Of a stretch of 64,000 nucleotides of DNA, positions 1-58,445 are shown piece after piece. The notes under the pieces are model-generated. The model searched no databases. It was not told where the DNA came from and saw only the letters and a list, made by a program, of their open reading frames with translations. The position numbers and the translations under genes are program-made. How positions within the stretch are numbered: position 1 is the first letter of the stretch; each line of letters begins with the position of its first letter. This DNA comes from Candidatus Woesebacteria bacterium GW2011_GWB1_33_38 (GTDB lineage: Bacteria > Patescibacteriota > Microgenomatia > UBA8517): the NCBI GenBank assembly GCA_000990005.1, contig LBPF01000001.1:90315-154314 (forward strand), given 5' to 3'.

Positions 1-1236
1 TATTCAGTTTTAACTACTGGTAGAGACGAATGGGGAGAATTTATGCCCTTACATTTTCGTGCATTTGGAGAGTTTAAACTTCCTGTCTATATATACTCAG
101 TTGTTGCTAGCGAATTTATATTTGGTTTAACTCCTTTGGCTGTTCGTTTACCAGCTGTTATGTATGGACTTTTGTCAATAATTGGACTGTATTTAATGGT
201 ATATGAGTTAACTAAAAACAAATTATTATCTCTTCTTTCATCATTCTTATTTAGCATTACTCCTTGGTTTTTTATCTTTTCAAGAACAGGATATGAAGTA
301 ACTGCAGGACTTACATTTTTTATCTGGGCAATTTATTTATTGCTTCGCTCTTTTGAGCGAAGTAAATTCTTATTTATTATTTCAACATTCTTATTTGTCA
401 TATCTGCATATAGTTATAATAGTTTTAGAATACTAACACCAATAGTACTTGGAATTATTTTTATTTACCATTTATATAAACGACAATTTGTGGTTGTTGC
501 TCTGTCTGTATTAATTTTGATAGCAAGCGTCGTACCGTTGTATAAGTTGTATAAAGAAGACTCAGGTTTATCAAGATTACAAACAGTTGGGTCAAAAAGT
601 AATTTAGTTATAAATTACTTCAAAAACTTTTCACCCAAATATTTATTTGTAAGTGGCGATACCAATCTAAGAAGTCAGATTCCACAAACAGGAGAGTTGT
701 ATTATTTAGATGCTTTATTTTTAGTATTAGGAATTTTATACATTTTAAAGTCTAATAATCCGAAGTTATATTTAGTTTTAGGACTTTTATTAATAGCCCC
801 AATTCCAGCTACTATTACTAAAGAAAATCCACATGCCCTACGCGCTATTTTAATGAGCCCTATTTTATCTGTAATTTCAGCATTTGGAGTTTATTATTTT
901 TCTAGCCTTTTTACTAAAAATAAAAATATATTATTAACTATAATTATTGTACTTTACGCTTTGTCTTTTGAAGGTTATATGTATAAATTCGGGACGGAGT
1001 ACAACAATTTGTCCCGTTCGGCATGGCAACATGAGTACAAGCAGATTTTTGAAAAACAAAAAGAAGGCTGTGTTTCGGATGAGTTTGCCCAGCCTTATAT
1101 ATTTGCCCTTTTTTACCAAAAAGTAAATCCAAAGGAATTTATTACAACCCGTGAGTTAAATCCAGTTTCTGATTGGGGATTTTCAACAGTAAAGTCATTT
1201 GGAAATTTTGATTTTCCTAAAATATGCAAAAATTAA
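1..1236 (+). CDS. GT-C superfamily membrane glycosyltransferase (ArnT/PMT-like), 5'-partial. The reading frame is open from nt 1.
   Basis: No stop in frame 1 upstream of the ATG at 43, so the gene is truncated by the window edge. Many TM helices. C-terminal soluble domain (PYIFALFYQKVNPKEF...) is paralogous to the next gene's C-terminus. Confidence 0.6.
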   Translation, partial: YSVLTTGRDEWGEFMPLHFRAFGEFKLPVYIYSVVASEFIFGLTPLAVRLPAVMYGLLSIIGLYLMVYELTKNKLLSLLSSFLFSITPWFFIFSRTGYEVTAGLTFFIWAIYLLLRSFERSKFLFIISTFLFVISAYSYNSFRILTPIVLGIIFIYHLYKRQFVVVALSVLILIASVVPLYKLYKEDSGLSRLQTVGSKSNLVINYFKNFSPKYLFVSGDTNLRSQIPQTGELYYLDALFLVLGILYILKSNNPKLYLVLGLLLIAPIPATITKENPHALRAILMSPILSVISAFGVYYFSSLFTKNKNILLTIIIVLYALSFEGYMYKFGTEYNNLSRSAWQHEYKQIFEKQKEGCVSDEFAQPYIFALFYQKVNPKEFITTRELNPVSDWGFSTVKSFGNFDFPKICKN

Positions 1237-2765
1237 CTTATTTTTTTTTGACATTAATTGTTTTACTTGCAGTGTTTTTAAGATTTTGGAAACTTGATCA
1301 AATACCAGCTTCACTTAATTGGGATGAGGTAGCAGCAGGATATAACGCATATACAATTGCCAATTGGGGAGCAGATGAATATGGAAATAAGTTTCCACTT
1401 GTTTTTAAGTCGTTTGCTGACGACAAACATCCAGTGCATATTTATTTGACCGCTATCGTAGTCAAGCTATTTGGATTATCAGACTTTAATATTCGCGCAA
1501 CAAGTGCAGGCATAGGTGTTTTGACTGTTCTTTTTGTTTTTTTTCTTGCAAAAGAATTGTTCAAGAGTGATTTAGTAGGTTTATTTTCAAGCTTATTTTT
1601 AGCTGTTTCTCCATACCATATTCATTTCTCAAGAGGCCTGTGGGAAAATAACTTTGCTCTTTTCTTTTTAATAGCAGGACTCGTCATGTTTTACACTGGA
1701 ATTAGAAAATCCAATTATTTGATTCCCCTCGCTTTTTCTTTTTTTGGACTTTCGTTTTATTCATATCATTCTGCAAAAATAGTAGTTCCAATGGTTGTAG
1801 TTTTGGTTTGTCTAATTAATATCAAAAAGTTATTGGCAAACAAGACAGTGTTTATGTCATCTGTATTAGTAGTTTTTCTTTTTGGAATACTACTGATCAA
1901 GGATACTAGAATTTTAGGTTTTGCCAGAATTAATCAAACCAAATTAGCAAGCGATGTAAGCATTTTTGATAATTATAAAAAACATTTTACTTATTCATAT
2001 TTGTTTAGAAGTGGTGATCTGGGTCCAAGAGCATCAGTGAAAGTAATTGGTGAGTTTTACAAAATAGATTTGATACTTTCACTTATTGGATTACTCGTCT
2101 TAATAACTAAAAAGAAGTGGCAAGTCCTGTCCGTTATTGTTTTTTGGTTGATATTATCACCAATCCCCAGTGCGGTTTCATCAACAGAACCAAGCGCTAT
2201 AAGAGGAATTTTTATGATAGTTCCTGTGTTACTACTATCGGCTTCTGGAACAGAAGCTCTGATTGTGCTTTTTAAAAATAAATTGGTTCAACTTGTTATT
2301 GTGATGGCTATTTTGATAAGTTTGGGTTTTGAAGTTAAAAATTACCTTAGCTATTATCTAAACATCTATCCAGTTAAAGAAGCAATTGAGTGGCAGTATG
2401 GTATGAAACAAATTGTTGAATATAGTCAGAAAAATAATGATTTTTATAAAATGTACGTTGATAATATTCGTCAACAACCTTATATATACTTTTTGTATTA
2501 TTTAAAAGTTCCACTTCCTGAACTTTTAGCAACTGTAAGATATGATGAAAGTAATTCAAAAAGTTTTAATACAGTACTGTCGTTTGATAGATACCAGTTT
2601 GGTAATTGGAATATTATAGAAAGTTACCCTAATGAAGGAATTTTATACACGGTAACTCCCAGTTATTATACTGGTTTAAGACATTTACAACAATTTGATG
2701 TATTAAAATTAATAAAGTATCCTAATAAGAGTGATGCATTTTATATTGTAGGAGGGCATGAATAA
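1224..2765 (+). CDS. GT-C superfamily glycosyltransferase (PMT/ArnT-like, GT39/GT83-type)
   Basis: First-loop motif NWDEVAAGYNAYTIANWG (the DE motif of PMT/ArnT enzymes). About 11 predicted TM helices followed by a soluble C-terminal domain. Confidence 0.7.
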   Translation: MQKLTYFFLTLIVLLAVFLRFWKLDQIPASLNWDEVAAGYNAYTIANWGADEYGNKFPLVFKSFADDKHPVHIYLTAIVVKLFGLSDFNIRATSAGIGVLTVLFVFFLAKELFKSDLVGLFSSLFLAVSPYHIHFSRGLWENNFALFFLIAGLVMFYTGIRKSNYLIPLAFSFFGLSFYSYHSAKIVVPMVVVLVCLINIKKLLANKTVFMSSVLVVFLFGILLIKDTRILGFARINQTKLASDVSIFDNYKKHFTYSYLFRSGDLGPRASVKVIGEFYKIDLILSLIGLLVLITKKKWQVLSVIVFWLILSPIPSAVSSTEPSAIRGIFMIVPVLLLSASGTEALIVLFKNKLVQLVIVMAILISLGFEVKNYLSYYLNIYPVKEAIEWQYGMKQIVEYSQKNNDFYKMYVDNIRQQPYIYFLYYLKVPLPELLATVRYDESNSKSFNTVLSFDRYQFGNWNIIESYPNEGILYTVTPSYYTGLRHLQQFDVLKLIKYPNKSDAFYIVGGHE

Positions 2766-2782
2766 TAAAACAATTAATCTGT

Positions 2783-2805
2783 GACGAGTTACGGGTTACG
2801 AGTTA
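2783..2805. repeat. 5' arm of an inverted repeat flanking the four-helix-bundle gene (gacgagttacgggttacgagtta)
   Basis: Bases 2793-2805 (gggttacgagtta) are the perfect reverse complement of 3200-3212 (taactcgtaaccc). Heptamer-like internal reiteration (gagttac/gggttac/gagtta). Confidence 0.7.
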
Positions 2806-2813
2806 AACAAAAT

Positions 2814-3176
2814 ATGAATATTGTAAAATTTGAGGATTTAGAAATCTGGAAATCAGCATTGTTGGTTACAAAAGATGTTTACGATATTACATCTCAGGGC
2901 AAGTTTTCAAAAGATTTTGGATTAAGAGATCAGATTAGAAGAGCTGTGGTGTCAATTAGTTCAAATATTGTCGAAGGTTTTGAAAAAAGAAATAATAATG
3001 AATTTAGACGATTTTTAATGATTTCGAAAGGTTCAGCTGGAGAAGTTAGAAACCAACTTTACATTGCTTTATCGATCAATTATATAAACAAATTAGAATT
3101 TGATAAGATAAATAGCCAGTTGCTAGAATTGTCAAAAAGGATGGGTGCGTTCATCAGTTATTTAACAAAAAAATGA
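2814..3176 (+). CDS. four-helix-bundle protein (23S rRNA intervening-sequence protein family)
   Basis: FEDLEIWKSALLVTKDVYDIT...RDQIRRAVVSISSNIVEGF...RFLMISKGSAGEVRNQLYIA is the canonical motif set of this family. The ATG at 2814 is preferred over the GTG at 2781. Confidence 0.8.
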   Translation: MNIVKFEDLEIWKSALLVTKDVYDITSQGKFSKDFGLRDQIRRAVVSISSNIVEGFEKRNNNEFRRFLMISKGSAGEVRNQLYIALSINYINKLEFDKINSQLLELSKRMGAFISYLTKK

Positions 3177-4078
3177 TCAAAAATGTTAACTCGCCACTCG
3201 TAACTCGTAACCCCAAAACTGTGTTACTGTCCGTTATCCTAGCAACAAGAAACGAAGAAGAAAATATTAAACGGTGCCTGGAAAGCGTAAAAGATATTGC
3301 ATCTGAGATTATTATTTTTGATGAATATTCAACTGATTCTACTCGTGAAATTGCAGAAAAACTTGGAGCCAAAGTATATCTTGAAGAACATCATGATATA
3401 TTTCATATTACAAAACAAAAAGCACTCGAAAAAGCTAATGGAGAATGGATATTGCAACTTGATGCGGATGAAGTAGTAACACTAGAATTAGTAACAGATA
3501 TACTCAACGTTGTTAATGGTCAACTCGTCACTCGTAACTCGCAAACCGACAAACTATTTCAACGTCATCAAAAATTAATAGAACAACGTGACGGTCCAAT
3601 TGGTAAATCTACAGGTTATACGGTGGGCTATTTTATTCCCAGAAGGAATATGTTTTTGGGAAAACCTTTAATTCACGCAGGGGTATATCCAGATGGAGTA
3701 ATAAGATTAGTTAAAAACGGTTTTGCCAGATTCCCTCAAAAGTCTGTACATGAACAAATTGAACTTGATGGAAAAGTTGGCTGGTTAAATGGTGATTTAC
3801 TGCATTATGATTCACCAACTTTAAAAAGATATTTATCTCGTTTAAATCGCTACACTGATCTTCACGCGGAAGAGCTAAAAGTAAAGAAACTTCCTAATAA
3901 TATATTGTCTTTTGTTAAGTATGTCTTCCTAATTCCTACTTCCAAATTCTTGACTCTCTATTTTCGTCATCTCGGTTTCCTTGACGGCGTAAACGGCTTT
4001 CTCTGGAGTTTTTTTAGCGCCCTGCACTTCCCAATTGCATATTTTAAATATGTAACAGATAATAAAGATATAAAATAA
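3173..4078 (+). CDS. GT2 family glycosyltransferase (GT-A fold)
   Basis: LLSVILATRNEEENIKRCLESV...IIIFDEYSTDST...LQLDADE (DxD motif). The first 17 codons are encoded by repeat DNA, so the true start may be the GTG at about 3219. Confidence 0.75.
   Translation: MIKNVNSPLVTRNPKTVLLSVILATRNEEENIKRCLESVKDIASEIIIFDEYSTDSTREIAEKLGAKVYLEEHHDIFHITKQKALEKANGEWILQLDADEVVTLELVTDILNVVNGQLVTRNSQTDKLFQRHQKLIEQRDGPIGKSTGYTVGYFIPRRNMFLGKPLIHAGVYPDGVIRLVKNGFARFPQKSVHEQIELDGKVGWLNGDLLHYDSPTLKRYLSRLNRYTDLHAEELKVKKLPNNILSFVKYVFLIPTSKFLTLYFRHLGFLDGVNGFLWSFFSALHFPIAYFKYVTDNKDIK
3186..3213. repeat. 3' arm of the inverted repeat (taactcgccactcgtaactcgtaacccc); tandem heptamer actcg(c/t)(c/a) repeated three times
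   Basis: Pairs with 2783-2805 and begins 10 nt after the four-helix-bundle stop codon. Confidence 0.7.
3513..3533. repeat. third, direct copy of the 21-nt repeat (caactcgtcactcgtaactcg), lying inside the GT2 coding sequence
   Basis: 19/21 identity to 3186-3206. Encodes the peptide QLVTRNS, echoing PLVTRNP encoded by the copy at the gene's 5' end. Confidence 0.6.
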
Positions 4079-4079
4079 G

Positions 4080-4817
4080 ATGGATTTAAAAAATAAAATT
4101 GTGGTCATTACAGGTTCTTCAAGCGGGATAGGTAGAACAACTGCTATAAGATTTGCAAAAGAAGGTGCAAAAGTTGTTGTAAATTTTAATATTAATTCTA
4201 GGGGGGGGCAGGAGACTGTCGATGAAATTAATAAAATCTCCGAGGGATTGTTGGTACAGGCTGATGTTACAAAGCCAAAAGAAATAATTAGGTTGTTTGA
4301 CGAAGTCGTTAAAAAATTTGGGACAGTCGATATATTAATAAATAATGCAGCAATTCCAAATGATAAAGTTCCATATTTTGAAGCAAGTTATGAGGATATT
4401 GTTGAACTTGTAAATACTGATTTGATTGGACCAATGATGTGTTCAAAGGAGGCGTTAAAATATATGCAAAAACAGGGTTATGGAAAAATAATTAATACAA
4501 GTTCGATTAGGGGTGCAGAATATGGTGGTAGATCTGTTGTTTATGCTGCTTCAAAATCTGGAATTAATAGTTTTTCAAAAACCCTGGCTAAAATGGTTTC
4601 CCCAAATATTCAGGTAAATGCAGTAGCACCAGGATTTGTAAAAACTAGAAACTATGATGGGATGACTAAAGAACAAACCGATTTGTTTATTGCTCAAACA
4701 TATTTAAAAAGATGGGTTACAGAAGATGAAATTGCAGATGCATTTATATTTTTAGCAAAAAATGACGCAATGACAGGCCAAGTAATATATGTTGATGCGG
4801 GATTTACACTGAAATAA
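4080..4817 (+). CDS. SDR family oxidoreductase (FabG-like)
   Basis: VVITGSSSGIGRTTA (TGxxxGxG), NNAA, YAASK catalytic motif. Confidence 0.85.
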   Translation: MDLKNKIVVITGSSSGIGRTTAIRFAKEGAKVVVNFNINSRGGQETVDEINKISEGLLVQADVTKPKEIIRLFDEVVKKFGTVDILINNAAIPNDKVPYFEASYEDIVELVNTDLIGPMMCSKEALKYMQKQGYGKIINTSSIRGAEYGGRSVVYAASKSGINSFSKTLAKMVSPNIQVNAVAPGFVKTRNYDGMTKEQTDLFIAQTYLKRWVTEDEIADAFIFLAKNDAMTGQVIYVDAGFTLK

Positions 4818-4818
4818 T

Positions 4819-5037
4819 CTATTTTATAATTTCTTCTCTTGAAATTCCTGCCTCTCGAAGTAACGAAATCAGGGTTCCTTTTGGAATGTCGTTTAAATGC
4901 ATTGCAATAACTGCCCTTTTTCCATTTTTTGAATTAAACATTACAATATGACTCCCCGTTTGGTGATCTTCGATAAATCCTAATTTTTTAAGTTTCTTTA
5001 ATAATTTCTTTGACGTAAAATTTGGAAGTTTAGGCAT
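4819..5037 (-). CDS. hicA: type II toxin HicA (YcfA-like mRNA interferase)
   Basis: KKLGFIEDHQTGSHIVMFN...GKRAVIAMHLNDIPKGTLISLLREAGISREE matches the HicA consensus. Overlaps hicB by 8 nt. Confidence 0.8.
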   Translation of the reverse strand: MPKLPNFTSKKLLKKLKKLGFIEDHQTGSHIVMFNSKNGKRAVIAMHLNDIPKGTLISLLREAGISREEIIK

Positions 5038-5278
5038 ATGAAAACGGTATTGGTGTATCCATATTTATAGTTGAGAAGAATGAATGTTCATCGCTTGGTG
5101 CAACTTCCTCATGTTTTTTCAAACTGGCTAAATATGCGTTAATTGCTTCTTTAGCCATTTTTTTAGCTTCAGTTAAATTTTTACCATAAGTTACGCAACC
5201 AGGAAGCGAAGGAACTGAAACAGTAAACCCTCCTTCTGGTTCTGTCTTAAAAATTAAATTGTAAGTAACTTTTTTCAT
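5030..5278 (-). CDS. hicB: type II antitoxin HicB (UPF0150)
   Basis: YNLIFKTEPEGGFTVSVPSLPGCVTYGKNLTEAKKMAKEAINAYL is the classical HicB N-domain. Confidence 0.8.
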   Translation of the reverse strand: MKKVTYNLIFKTEPEGGFTVSVPSLPGCVTYGKNLTEAKKMAKEAINAYLASLKKHEEVAPSDEHSFFSTINMDTPIPFSYA

Positions 5279-41847: not shown

Positions 41848-42926
41848 AAAAGATTGGTATTCTATCATTTTATGGAGGTATCATTAACCGTGGAGTCGAA
41901 ATTTTAGTACATAGACTATCTAATGAGATTGTTGATCACGGGTACGACGTAACTGTTTATCAAATTGGACCAAGATTAATAGATGCTAAATATAAAACAG
42001 TATCACTGTTTTCAAACGTGGATTGGAACCAAAAGAGTTCAAATGTTGCTTTTTTAAATCATTACAGTCTCAAAATAATGGAGTTTACCTTACAGGTATT
42101 GAAAATCATTGATAAAAAGACAGATATTGTTTTTCCAACCAATGGCCAGTGGCAAAGTGTGCTGTGTAGTATTTGGGCAAAAATTAAAAGAAAGAAAGTA
42201 ATCATATCTGGTTTTTCAGGTATCGGCTTTGATGATAGAGTCAATCTCTATACCTTTCCTGATCGGTTCATACCAATGTCAACAAAAGCATTGGAAAAAT
42301 CAAGAAAGATCAACCCGTTTGTTAAGTTGGTAAAAATTCCTGGAGGGGTTGATTTAAATAAATTTAAAAAAGCTTTAAATAATAAAAATGATATTCAAAA
42401 GACGGTTCTTTCAGTGGGTGCATTTACTGATCAGAAAAGACATGATTTAGTCATAAATGCTGTTTCAAAACTCAATAATGTTAATTTAATAATTGCGGGG
42501 GGTGGAGGAAATAAAAAGAAAGAAATTAAAGAACTTGGTGAAAGACTATTAGATAATAGGTTTAAAGTTGTTGAGATAGCACATGATAAGATGCCTGACA
42601 TTTACAACCTAGCTGATGTTTTCACCTTGGCCTCTGAGCCCTCTGAGGCCTTTGGTATGGTATTAATTGAAGCAATGGCTTGTGGATTGCCAGTTGTAGC
42701 TACAGATGATCCAATTCGACGCGAAATAGTAGGCAATGCGGGATTGTTTGTAGATCCGACAAATATTGATTTATACGCAGAAAAGATCAAGGAAGCTTTA
42801 AATATTGATTGGGGAGATAAGCAAAGCTTGGCCAAGCTAGGGCTTGGTAAACCAAGAAAACAGGCTGAAAAGTTTAGTTGGGATATAATAGCGTCAGAAT
42901 ATGAAAAATTATTTAAAACTTTATGA
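41829..42926 (+). CDS. GT4 family glycosyltransferase
   Basis: SEPSEAFGMVLIEAMACGLPVVATD. Confidence 0.8.
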   Translation: MYKKQMKKIGILSFYGGIINRGVEILVHRLSNEIVDHGYDVTVYQIGPRLIDAKYKTVSLFSNVDWNQKSSNVAFLNHYSLKIMEFTLQVLKIIDKKTDIVFPTNGQWQSVLCSIWAKIKRKKVIISGFSGIGFDDRVNLYTFPDRFIPMSTKALEKSRKINPFVKLVKIPGGVDLNKFKKALNNKNDIQKTVLSVGAFTDQKRHDLVINAVSKLNNVNLIIAGGGGNKKKEIKELGERLLDNRFKVVEIAHDKMPDIYNLADVFTLASEPSEAFGMVLIEAMACGLPVVATDDPIRREIVGNAGLFVDPTNIDLYAEKIKEALNIDWGDKQSLAKLGLGKPRKQAEKFSWDIIASEYEKLFKTL

Positions 42927-43765
42927 TTAGCGTAATTATCCCCACATACAATGAAGAAGATGTAATTAGTGATTGTTTATTATCACTATCTAAACAGTCA
43001 TTTAAAGACTTTGAAGTAATTGTTGTTGATGACGGAAGTGTTGATAATTCAAAAATAAAAATTCAAAACTCAAAAATACAATTTAAAAATCTAAAATTAA
43101 TCCTTTTAGGACAAGACCATAAAGGAGCGGGAAACGCTAGGAATTTGGGGGCAAAACATGCAAATGGAGATATTTTGGTTTTTGTTGATGCTGACATGAC
43201 TTTTGACAAAAACTTTATAAAAATGCTTGCTAAGCCAATAATTACGGGCAAATTAAAAGGTGTGTTTTCCAAAGAAGAGCACGTTAGTAACTGGAGCAAT
43301 GTTTGGTCAAGGTGCTGGAATATAAACGAAGGTTGGGAGGATAAAAAAAGACACCCTAAAAAATATCCAGATTACCAACCTGTTTTTAGAGCAATATTAA
43401 AGTCAGAATTTAATAAAGTCGGTGGTTTTACTCCTGGAGGATATGATGATGATTGGAGTTTATCTAAAAAATTAGGCTACGAAGCATTTTTTTCGCCGAA
43501 GGCGGTGTTTTTTCATAAAAATCCTGAAGGCTTAAAAGAAATATTTAATCATGCCAAATGGGTGGGGAAAAGGCAGTATAAGTTAGGACTATTGGGTTAC
43601 TTGATAGGTTTAATTAGGAGTTCTTTCCCGGTCTCACTATTTATTGGCTTCGTTAAATCTGTATTAAGTTTTAATTTTTATTTTTTAATTTTCAAATTGG
43701 TGTATGACTTTGGAATTTTTGTGGGAATAATTAATTTTATGTTTACCAAAAAAGGTGCAAAATGA
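42923..43765 (+). CDS. GT2 family glycosyltransferase
   Basis: ISVIIPTYNEEDVISDCLLSL...VIVVDDGSVDNS...VFVDADM. Confidence 0.8.
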   Translation: MISVIIPTYNEEDVISDCLLSLSKQSFKDFEVIVVDDGSVDNSKIKIQNSKIQFKNLKLILLGQDHKGAGNARNLGAKHANGDILVFVDADMTFDKNFIKMLAKPIITGKLKGVFSKEEHVSNWSNVWSRCWNINEGWEDKKRHPKKYPDYQPVFRAILKSEFNKVGGFTPGGYDDDWSLSKKLGYEAFFSPKAVFFHKNPEGLKEIFNHAKWVGKRQYKLGLLGYLIGLIRSSFPVSLFIGFVKSVLSFNFYFLIFKLVYDFGIFVGIINFMFTKKGAK

Positions 43766-58101: not shown

Positions 58102-58370
58102 TGTATATTTTTATTGATGAATCAGGTACTGGGTCAAAAATTGGACACGCAACTATTGCAGTTGTATATCTTGAGATAATAAACCAAGCTAAGTTTGACA
58201 AAAGCTATAATAAAATATTAAACGAGTTAAGGCTTGATAATTTTCACTGGGCCGAACATGGATGGAAAGTTCGACAAAGATTTATTAATAAAATTTTGAG
58301 TTTAGATTTTATATATAAAGTTGCTTTGTTTGAAAACCCCGCATTGAAGCGGGGTCAACTTTCCAAGTAG
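58101..58370 (+). pseudogene. truncated DUF3800-family gene (N-terminal 89 aa only)
   Basis: MYIFIDESGTG is the DUF3800 N-terminal signature. Full-length members are more than 200 aa. Confidence 0.5.
58336..58353. terminator. GC-rich hairpin ccccgc-attgaa-gcgggg, with a T-run only on the minus-strand side
   Basis: Perfect 6-bp stem in an AT-rich context. Lies within the 3' end of the DUF3800 fragment. Confidence 0.25.
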
Positions 58371-58445
58371 CTTTTTAAAGCTCGGCCAACACGGGCCTTT
58401 GTCCTTGGGAGCTTGTTAATACTTGTATTGTAACATTTTTGTCAA

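Follow-up and report, generated by a model that had tools for sequence, protein, structure and literature searches.

A glycosyltransferase operon of a Woesebacteria bacterium probably carries a resident hairpin cassette of the type seen in rRNA intervening sequences

A four-helix-bundle gene between inverted heptamer arrays

We examined 64,000 nucleotides of Candidatus Woesebacteria bacterium GW2011_GWB1_33_38 (contig LBPF01000001.1, positions 90,315 to 154,314), hereafter the window. Near the start of this stretch, a gene for a four-helix-bundle (4HB) protein, of the family usually encoded in intervening sequences (IVSs) of 23S rRNA, stands between two glycosyltransferase genes and is bracketed by two inverted arrays of short tandem units, which we call the 5' and 3' arms (Table 1). 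An earlier sequence-only reading of this DNA had proposed the family, the GT-C and GT2 neighbours and a perfect 13-bp inverted repeat within 10 nt of the gene on each side, and all three proposals were borne out. The open reading frame (ORF) at 2814-3176 scores 117 bits with the PF05635 profile (cut-off 33.8) and 106.7 bits with TIGR02436 (cut-off 24), and Pfam places a PMT_2-type GT-C gene upstream and a GT2 gene downstream. The 13-nt repeat consists of GGGTTACGAGTTA at 2793-2805 and TAACTCGTAACCC at 3201-3213, with 8 nt between the end of the 5' arm and the ATG and 10 nt between the 4HB stop codon and the start of the 3' arm. The 4HB protein is 100% identical to a protein of Candidatus Woesebacteria GW2011_GWA1_33_30 (named "S23 ribosomal protein, nonfunctional" by NCBI), and its residues 7-106 are homologous to the pentameric Xcc0516 structure 2GSC (E = 8.8e-14). 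Between the window and its relatives at loci L081 and L082, nonsynonymous divergence (dN) is 0.06-0.11 and synonymous sites are saturated; judged from these substitutions, the gene is under strong purifying selection.

Table 1. Features of the cassette locus, in positions of the window
Feature	Position	Strand	Description
GT-C (PMT_2-type) glycosyltransferase gene, upstream; left border of the insertion site	1224-2765	+	Pfam PF13231/PF02366
5' arm	2766-2806	+	heptamers GTGACGA GTTACGG GTTACGA GTTAA (core 2781-2806, (ACGAGTT)n) and an AT-rich outer part
4HB gene, cassette cargo	2814-3176	+	PF05635 / TIGR02436, 120 aa
GT2 glycosyltransferase gene, downstream	3173-4078	+	Pfam; ATG overlaps the 4HB stop (ATGA)
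3' arm	3186-3226	+	heptamers TTAACTCG CCACTCG TAACTCG TAACCCC ((TAACTCG)n, 3186-3214), reverse complement of the 5' arm
Third array	3517-3547	+	CAACTCG TCACTCG TAACTCG CAAACCG, 3'-arm orientation, in frame, peptide QLVTRNSQT

The 13-nt repeat is nested in the 41-nt pair formed by the two arms, which are 73% complementary. Tandem Repeats Finder reported period-7 arrays at 2784-2805 (3.1 copies), 3187-3211 and 3522-3541, and when up to two mismatches were allowed the heptamer motif occurred five times in the 64 kb, always within one of the three arrays, against 0.83 occurrences expected. The arrays hold only 2.9-3.6 imperfect units each and thus fall short of the long, near-perfect tract of a contingency locus. 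Taken alone, the 13-mer is not rare in this AT-rich window, because perfect 13-nt inverted repeats with arms 50-600 nt apart form 11 pairs where 4.7 are expected under a first-order Markov model. The significance of the pair lies instead in its composition, its tandem periodicity, its exact bracketing of the ORF and its conservation in relatives.

RNA folding, which the sequence-only reading had suggested as a check, recovered the stem between the arms but no unusual stability of the region as a whole. A minimal construct joining the two arms folds at -29.4 kcal/mol (z = -6.5, with none of 200 shuffles equally stable) into an interrupted duplex of about 24 bp, in which an internal loop separates the main helices of 13 and 8 bp; the terminal inverted repeats enclosing the insert thus pair over at least about 20 bp, as in IVSs. 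The minimum-energy fold of 2760-3230 contains this long-range stem, and the fold of the whole 471-nt region is unremarkable (z = -1.2).

Rfam returned no match at the cassette locus at its gathering thresholds. The window contains no rRNA, so the 4HB gene lies outside the rRNA setting that characterizes an IVS. A scan around the cassette gave promoter matches at background level and no terminator, and the cassette is most likely transcribed together with the operon. The best promoter-like match in the region, at 3100-3129 on the forward strand (TTGATA, 18 nt, TAGAAT, with an upstream TG; 10/12), falls within the final part of the 4HB gene, some 45 nt upstream of the GT2 start codon; it could serve GT2 as an internal promoter, but such matches are near background here.

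Matched inverted arrays accompany the gene family

We collected 80 loci of relatives (47-73% identical), mostly from metagenome-assembled genomes (MAGs) of the Candidate Phyla Radiation (CPR), whose taxonomic labels are unreliable. For the 73 that were usable, we computed a flank score by local alignment of the 5' flank against the reverse-complemented 3' flank, with 219 shuffles as the control. The median score was 34, compared with 16 in the shuffles (maximum 27) and 18 in direct orientation; 58 of the 73 loci exceeded every shuffle and 67 exceeded their 95th percentile. By eye, nearly all fetched loci show tandem repeats directly before the ATG, with position -1 often being the end of the 5' array, and the reverse complement of these repeats directly after the stop codon. 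The arrays have a period of 8 in 18 loci (GTTAACGR being the commonest unit) and of 7 in 6 loci, with about three clean copies, and the two arms agree in period.

The units are lineage-specific yet matched between the arms. Types found were GTTAACGR, GTTACGR, ATTACGM, TTCAAAG, GTCCAAA, AAGGTTK and TTGGCTAG, and further GTGAACT, GGGAAAA, GTCAGGA, GGAGATA, GGGAGTA and AAAAGATT. Several of these, unrelated in sequence, are found on annotated plasmids of cultured organisms: GGGAAAA in Nostoc and Geminocystis, GTCAGGA in Nostoc and Aulosira, and GGGAGTA in Nostoc edaphicum, while a Riemerella plasmid has AAGGTTY. Inverted arrays were visible by eye in about 10 of 16 plasmid loci, and were direct or unclear in L092, L093, L094, L098, L099 and L101. 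In L092 (Pseudanabaena galeata), about 15 copies of AAAGCTA lie upstream (~1380-1490) and about 10 copies of AAAAGCC downstream (1852-1960); these arrays are direct, and the locus is an exception to the inverted arrangement. A separate observation concerns six homologues on Peribacteria and Absconditabacterales contigs (L062, L070, L072, L074, L075 and L079), which contain in-frame TGA under translation table 11, as fits a lineage that recodes TGA as glycine; they retain the cassette architecture, with units AAAAGATT or AAGGTTK.

The cassettes are not placed at random with respect to the gene that follows. The downstream neighbour is co-oriented with the cassette in 64 of 70 loci, against a baseline of 73% (p = 1e-4), and the upstream neighbour in 55 of 70, which is not significant. 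The 4HB gene is separated from its upstream neighbour by about 50 nt and from its downstream neighbour by about 40 nt, roughly the length of an arm. On the sense strand 51 of 58 loci have a G-rich 5' arm, as do, by our count, 9 of the 10 independent unit types with unequal numbers of G and C, and the cyanobacterial 5' arm resembles a Shine-Dalgarno sequence; this composition fits the 5' arm being a translation-initiation region. We also considered whether the arms serve generally as stop-codon insulators, with TAA in every frame of both arms. This holds for TTA(A)CG units but fails for TTTGGAC, TTTTCCC, TACTCCC, AGTTCAC and the IVS units, and we reject it as a general rule.

The same build in a 23S rRNA intervening sequence

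None of the 86 related loci L001-L086 lies in rRNA. On a plasmid-designated replicon of Azospirillum lipoferum (AZO_p2; L100), however, an unannotated PF05635 ORF sits inside a large-subunit rRNA gene, and this is a bona fide 23S rRNA IVS. Its arms are tandem heptamers, (CRGAGGA)n and (TCYGTCN)n, which form a continuous 32-bp stem, G:U pairs included, at -64.3 kcal/mol (z = -9.8). Because this IVS has the same build, the stand-alone 4HB genes carry the IVS stem along with them. The suggestion that the window gene and its flanks are a self-contained cassette with IVS architecture is thus sustained, both by the 58-67 of 73 loci with the same arrangement and by the Azospirillum IVS.

The likeness extends to rRNA IVSs described elsewhere. 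Those of Leptospira and Coxiella, like L100 and the window, hold a PF05635 ORF between terminal inverted repeats pairing over at least 20 bp, and the L100 stem further shares tandem heptamers with the window arms and is purine-rich on its 5' side. PF05635 ORFs are also present in insertions of CPR 16S and 23S rRNA (PMC11270868), and the sporadic distribution of rRNA IVSs is consistent with horizontal transfer (PMC4990558). The window copy differs in lying in an mRNA operon with two glycosyltransferase neighbours and in having its 3' arm translated as part of the next gene. Excision by RNase III is documented for the IVSs of Coxiella and other species (PMC4990558), whereas for the window cassette it would be an extrapolation.

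Gain, loss and replacement at one junction

Two copies in one MAG (L005 and L011) are alike from ATTATTTATTATTTAG to CTAAATAATAAT and unrelated beyond these inverted-repeat ends; two copies each are present in UBA12141 and in a Roizmanbacteria MAG. The GT-C/GT2 junction itself exists in several states. A cassette of the TAACTCG type occupies it in the window, L081 and L082, and a second type, with arms GTGAACT and AGTTCAC, occupies it in L083, L223 and L224. The 4HB proteins of the second type are only 33-37% identical to that of the window, while the flanking proteins are 77% (GT-C) and 72-82% (GT2) identical; the 77% is also the identity of the window GT-C to its L083 orthologue. L084 and L225 are without a 4HB gene but have kept a lone 3' arm, whose translation yields the N-terminal residues of GT2 (MKKHGSQFTVD...). 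L225 also has a Y1_Tnp (IS200/IS605-type) transposase gene (4169-4849, reverse strand) some 0.8 kb downstream of GT2. Finally, the junction is empty in L085, L086 and L227, where the GT-C stop codon is followed by at most 15 nt and then by ATG-KLSVV, so that GT2 has its own ATG.

Most of the top 120 GT2 homologues have 278-290 aa and no N-terminal extension, and the empty junction is therefore the ancestral state and the insertion derived. Comparison of these junctions, with the sharp ends of L005 and L011 at the inverted repeat, shows the cassette, at the level of sequence, to be a discrete unit that is gained, lost and replaced at orthologous sites. Terminal inverted repeats together with presence and absence at orthologous sites are features by which transposons and miniature inverted-repeat transposable elements (MITEs) are recognized.

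Absorption of the 3' arm into the GT2 reading frame

At occupied junctions GT2 has lost its own ATG; its ORF starts at the ATGA overlap with the 4HB stop codon and crosses the 3' arm. The 3' arm thereby supplies GT2 with an N-terminal extension of about 16 codons (3173-3220), which most homologues lack. Heptamer units that contain TAA would put stop codons in all three frames. Just one unit has its TAA position in register with GT2, and the three bases there are CCA in the window, TTA for L081 and TCA for L082, while the out-of-frame units retain TAA; by this comparison, three different substitutions in three genomes keep the frame across the arm open. GT2 in L082 and L083 has no alternative in-frame start codon, so the arm-encoded extension appears to be translated, probably coupled to translation of 4HB. 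Read in this way, the 3' arm is absorbed into the GT2 reading frame.

A third array lies further inside GT2. The sequence-only reading had reported a direct copy of 3186-3206 there with 19/21 identity, and had taken it for a footprint left by the adjacent cassette. The copy and its identity are real, but it lies at 3520-3540, 7 nt downstream of the position first given (3513-3533, one unit out of register, matches at 15/21). The footprint interpretation is doubtful and we do not uphold it, because L227 has an array without a cassette and L224 a cassette without any array. The third array falls in a hypervariable, indel-rich loop of GT2, and its in-frame units have CAA instead of TAA. In L227 and several other GT2 proteins of empty junctions, this loop carries a type-B array that encodes the peptide STVHGSPPTVHN.

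The third array is close to the 3' arm as a partner for the 5' arm. In the window, hairpin constructs give -28.2 kcal/mol (z = -4.2) for the third array against -29.4 for the 3' arm, and duplexes give -30.6 against -32.0 kcal/mol. The 5' arm of L081 pairs better with the GT2 loop (-35.4 kcal/mol) than with its 3' arm (-31.1), and for L223 the loop array agrees with the 5' arm units (GTGATTA) over 25 of 27 nt and pairs at -40.2 kcal/mol, far more strongly than its own 3' arm (-20.9). The GT2 loops of L083 and L224 do not pair with the 5' arm. More widely, arm-like extra copies 130-1330 nt downstream exceeded shuffled controls in 5 of 54 loci, of which L020 looks spurious and the others are intergenic. 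Given this mixed picture across relatives, the third copy truly belongs to the repeat family and in some cases pairs better than the 3' arm, but it is not simply a footprint.

Gene-less hairpins built from the arrays

Full cassettes in L012, L013 and L035 adjoin hairpins that consist of a 5' array, about 10 nt and a 3' array, with no gene between them. An exact 16-mer scan of metagenomes for ACTCGTAACTCGTAAC found 120 loci, in contigs of 30-72% GC, a range that is odd for a single unit sequence. A PF05635 ORF lies within 150 nt in only 6 of the 120, and 45 of the remaining loci, being less than 500 nt from a contig end, could not be assessed. About 30 loci have an inverted partner array within 1.5 kb, mostly at ~30-130 nt, and so form small intergenic heptamer hairpins. 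In L143 (~1100-1200, in a contig of 39% GC), a gene-less GTTACGA/TCGTAAC hairpin adjoins an apparent tRNA gene. Within the 64 kb, the repeat that the sequence-only reading had proposed to search for genome-wide has no copies outside the three arrays. With so few PF05635 ORFs and so many gene-less hairpins, we reject the idea that the arrays are confined to 4HB neighbourhoods.

Other features of the window

Other heptamer tracts in the window are unrelated to the arms, being AT-rich, low-complexity coding sequence. One example, in a second GT2 gene at 42923-43765, is a period-7 tract at 43046-43098 (AATTCAA, 7.6 copies; peptide DNSKIKIQNSKIQFKNLKL) directly after the DDGS motif; here too a repeat encodes an insertion in the loop of a glycosyltransferase, with a sequence unlike that of the cassette arms. 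Between an SDR-like gene and a helicase-like gene, two small overlapping ORFs of 72 and 82 aa (4819-5278, reverse strand) look like a HicA/HicB-like toxin-antitoxin pair. Syntenic relatives have HicB_lk_antitox, AbiEii or DUF6922 genes at this position, apparently a hot spot of small accessory genes. The sole Rfam family in the window is a DUF3800-II RNA (RF02961) at 58353-58419 (reverse strand; 61 bits against a gathering score of 43.2).

What the cassette is and how its arms may act

We consider it probable that the window cassette is a resident member of a family of IVS-type hairpin cassettes, here outside rRNA, that is widespread and has relatives of the same layout in many phyla. The PF05635 gene, of about 120 codons, would sit in the loop of a foldback whose stems are inverted arrays of three to five tandem units of 7 or 8 nt. 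In this lineage the cassette landed between GT-C and GT2, co-oriented with GT2 and directly upstream of it, and replaced the GT2 start. In the operon transcript the arms would pair as the interrupted duplex described above and loop out the 4HB ORF, giving a structure of the type that RNase III cleaves in rRNA IVSs, and cleavage may by analogy occur here. With such pairing rRNA would be able to tolerate the insertion, and the mRNA at the present locus would be modulated or processed. The inverted arrays, as foldback DNA, probably also underlie the spread of the element.

Several observations weigh against this account. Among 1859 aligned arm positions, 1617 are Watson-Crick, and the mismatches include 61 G:U and 63 A:C pairs; the sense duplex is the stabler one in 36 loci and the antisense duplex in 22 (p = 0.21), and in the window it is the antisense duplex. 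With no excess of G:U and no strand preference, the CPR set does not demonstrate that a stem in the sense RNA is under selection. An RNase III cut in the stem would sever GT2 within codons 5-14. No transposase or recombinase is associated with the cassette, the available 64 kb hold one copy only, and comparison of occupied with empty junctions shows no target-site duplication, the insertion being old. The tandem periodicity of the arms is unexplained by this account, as is the existence of the third array, in some relatives, where there is no cassette at all.

The balance of G:U and A:C mismatches and the lack of a strand preference would fit arms that act only as DNA, namely as the terminal inverted repeats of a foldback or MITE-like element that are recognized in trans or folded as single strands, with RNA pairing incidental. 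We regard this as a possible but less favoured explanation. It would accommodate the sharp ends of L005 and L011 at the inverted repeat, the gene-less hairpins and lone arms, the turnover of the site implied by two cassette types at one junction, and the way in which the units of both arms change in concert and faster than the protein. The missing transposase, recombinase and target-site duplication count against it too. Moreover, a symmetric DNA site needs neither the orientation bias relative to the downstream gene nor a 5' arm that is G-rich on the sense strand, and the stem of the Azospirillum rRNA IVS is continuous through G:U pairs.

Another idea is that each tandem unit would be a binding site for one subunit of a pentameric 4HB protein, which would thereby regulate its own expression or assemble into a particle together with its RNA or DNA. 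The solved structures of relatives (2GSC; Avd) are homopentamers (PMC10053308), and the geometry of arrays of ~3-5 units with a fixed period, the 5' one often abutting the ATG, is attractive. Avd, the accessory protein of diversity-generating retroelements (DGRs), works with an RNA whose flanks pair around the template, according to a preprint (bioRxiv 10.1101/2023.10.23.563531). Yet proteins that are 70-75% identical have units that differ at 2-4 of 7 positions or in period (L073/L077, L090/L096, L002/L028 and window/L002), which weakens sequence-specific recognition of the units by the protein, and most TAACTCG arrays lie away from any 4HB gene. We therefore think this arrangement unlikely.

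It is very unlikely that the inverted arrays make GT2 phase-variable, by inversion of the segment or by slippage of the heptamers. Two arrays do lie in the GT2 frame, a heptamer is not a whole number of codons, the hypervariable loop is rich in indels, and the 5' arm is complementary to the loop array in the window and in L223; but the nine related loci all share one orientation and keep the frame open, arrays of 3-4 imperfect units are poor substrates for slippage, and no invertase is nearby. A chance inverted repeat beside an ordinary small gene, with the third copy as ordinary coding sequence, is hardly credible, since the frequency of perfect 13-nt repeats in the window and the whole-region z of -1.2 would allow it but the family-wide conservation of matched arrays, the enrichment of the motif, the stem z of -6.5 and the presence/absence polymorphism do not.

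Relation to known elements

Earlier work has already linked PF05635 with rRNA IVSs, recognized the homology to Avd and recorded the family in cas loci (PMC3936711, PMC10910872, PMC10053308). A literature search that included the exact repeat strings found no stand-alone PF05635 gene with inverted 7- to 8-mer arrays, nor such turnover, although an earlier description elsewhere is possible.

Avd has a pentameric four-helix-bundle fold homologous to the one predicted for the 4HB protein, and the two belong to the same family (PMC10053308; by way of 2GSC). The window gene differs from avd in a DGR, as it has neither an adjacent reverse transcriptase gene nor a pair of template and variable repeats; within about 4 kb its neighbours are the GT-C and GT2 genes and ORFs that by look are SDR-, HicA/HicB- and helicase-like, and there is no long direct repeat.

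Eukaryotic FB transposons have terminal inverted repeats built of short tandem subrepeats. Foldback elements and MITEs resemble the cassette in their terminal inverted repeats, and the cassette family also shows gene-less derivatives and presence/absence at orthologous sites. The cassette differs from them in that it contains no transposase gene, no target-site duplication is visible at its junctions, and its cargo is the 4HB gene.

Among bacterial repeats, the short tandemly repeated repetitive (STRR) heptamers of Cyanobacteria and the TAACTGA repeats of Beggiatoaceae, Cyanobacteria and Bacteroidetes are intergenic and tandem (PMC4679880). Like the cassette arms they are arrays of heptamers, typically 0-1 nt before a start codon, with a patchy distribution across phyla (PMC4679880). 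They are described as direct and without a link to PF05635, whereas the cassette arrays are inverted pairs around one gene family.

Genes named 23S_rRNA_IVP have been reported inside CRISPR-cas loci, and the association has been read as functional (PMC3936711; PMC10910872). They belong to the same family as the window gene and, like it, lie between co-oriented genes of an operon. We found three such 4HB genes in cas loci of cyanobacterial plasmids (L090, 1486-1842; L092, 1492-1851; L102, 601-969), between cas10 and cmr3 or between cas6 and cas4; a Picosynechococcus plasmid has unit GGAGATA at the first of these places and an Anabaena 90 plasmid has unit CAGGTGA at the second. Two of the three (L090 and L102) have inverted hairpin arrays and L092 has the direct arrays noted above. 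The hairpin arrays of L090 and L102 suggest that these are passenger cassettes, and the association of 23S_rRNA_IVP with CRISPR may thus reflect insertion of a cassette rather than a function in CRISPR.

Implications

A much broader proposal can be made, which we put forward as a speculation of doubtful standing. The rRNA IVSs, the 23S_rRNA_IVP genes of cas operons and the gene-less hairpins might all belong to one large, unrecognized foldback class that spans many phyla. Its pentamer, a free-living relative of Avd, would act on the arms with one unit per subunit, as RNA or as single-stranded DNA, to process or mobilize the element. In the Woesebacteria lineage the array in the GT2 loop, which in L223 has the 25/27-nt match to the 5' arm, would then function as a second pairing partner and couple the cassette to how the glycosyltransferase is expressed.

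Proteins of the PF05635 family are abundant, and the question of how rRNA IVSs arose and move goes back to the early 1990s. The finding of an IVS-type stem, built each time of tandem 7- to 8-mers, in operons, cas loci and rRNA alike, together with turnover at a single site, supports the long-standing view of the IVS as a mobile element. The cassette arms and the 4HB protein offer concrete substrates for biochemistry. In the Woesebacteria operon itself, where the 3' arm encodes the N-terminal extension of GT2, the locus illustrates how a host gene may absorb part of such a cassette.

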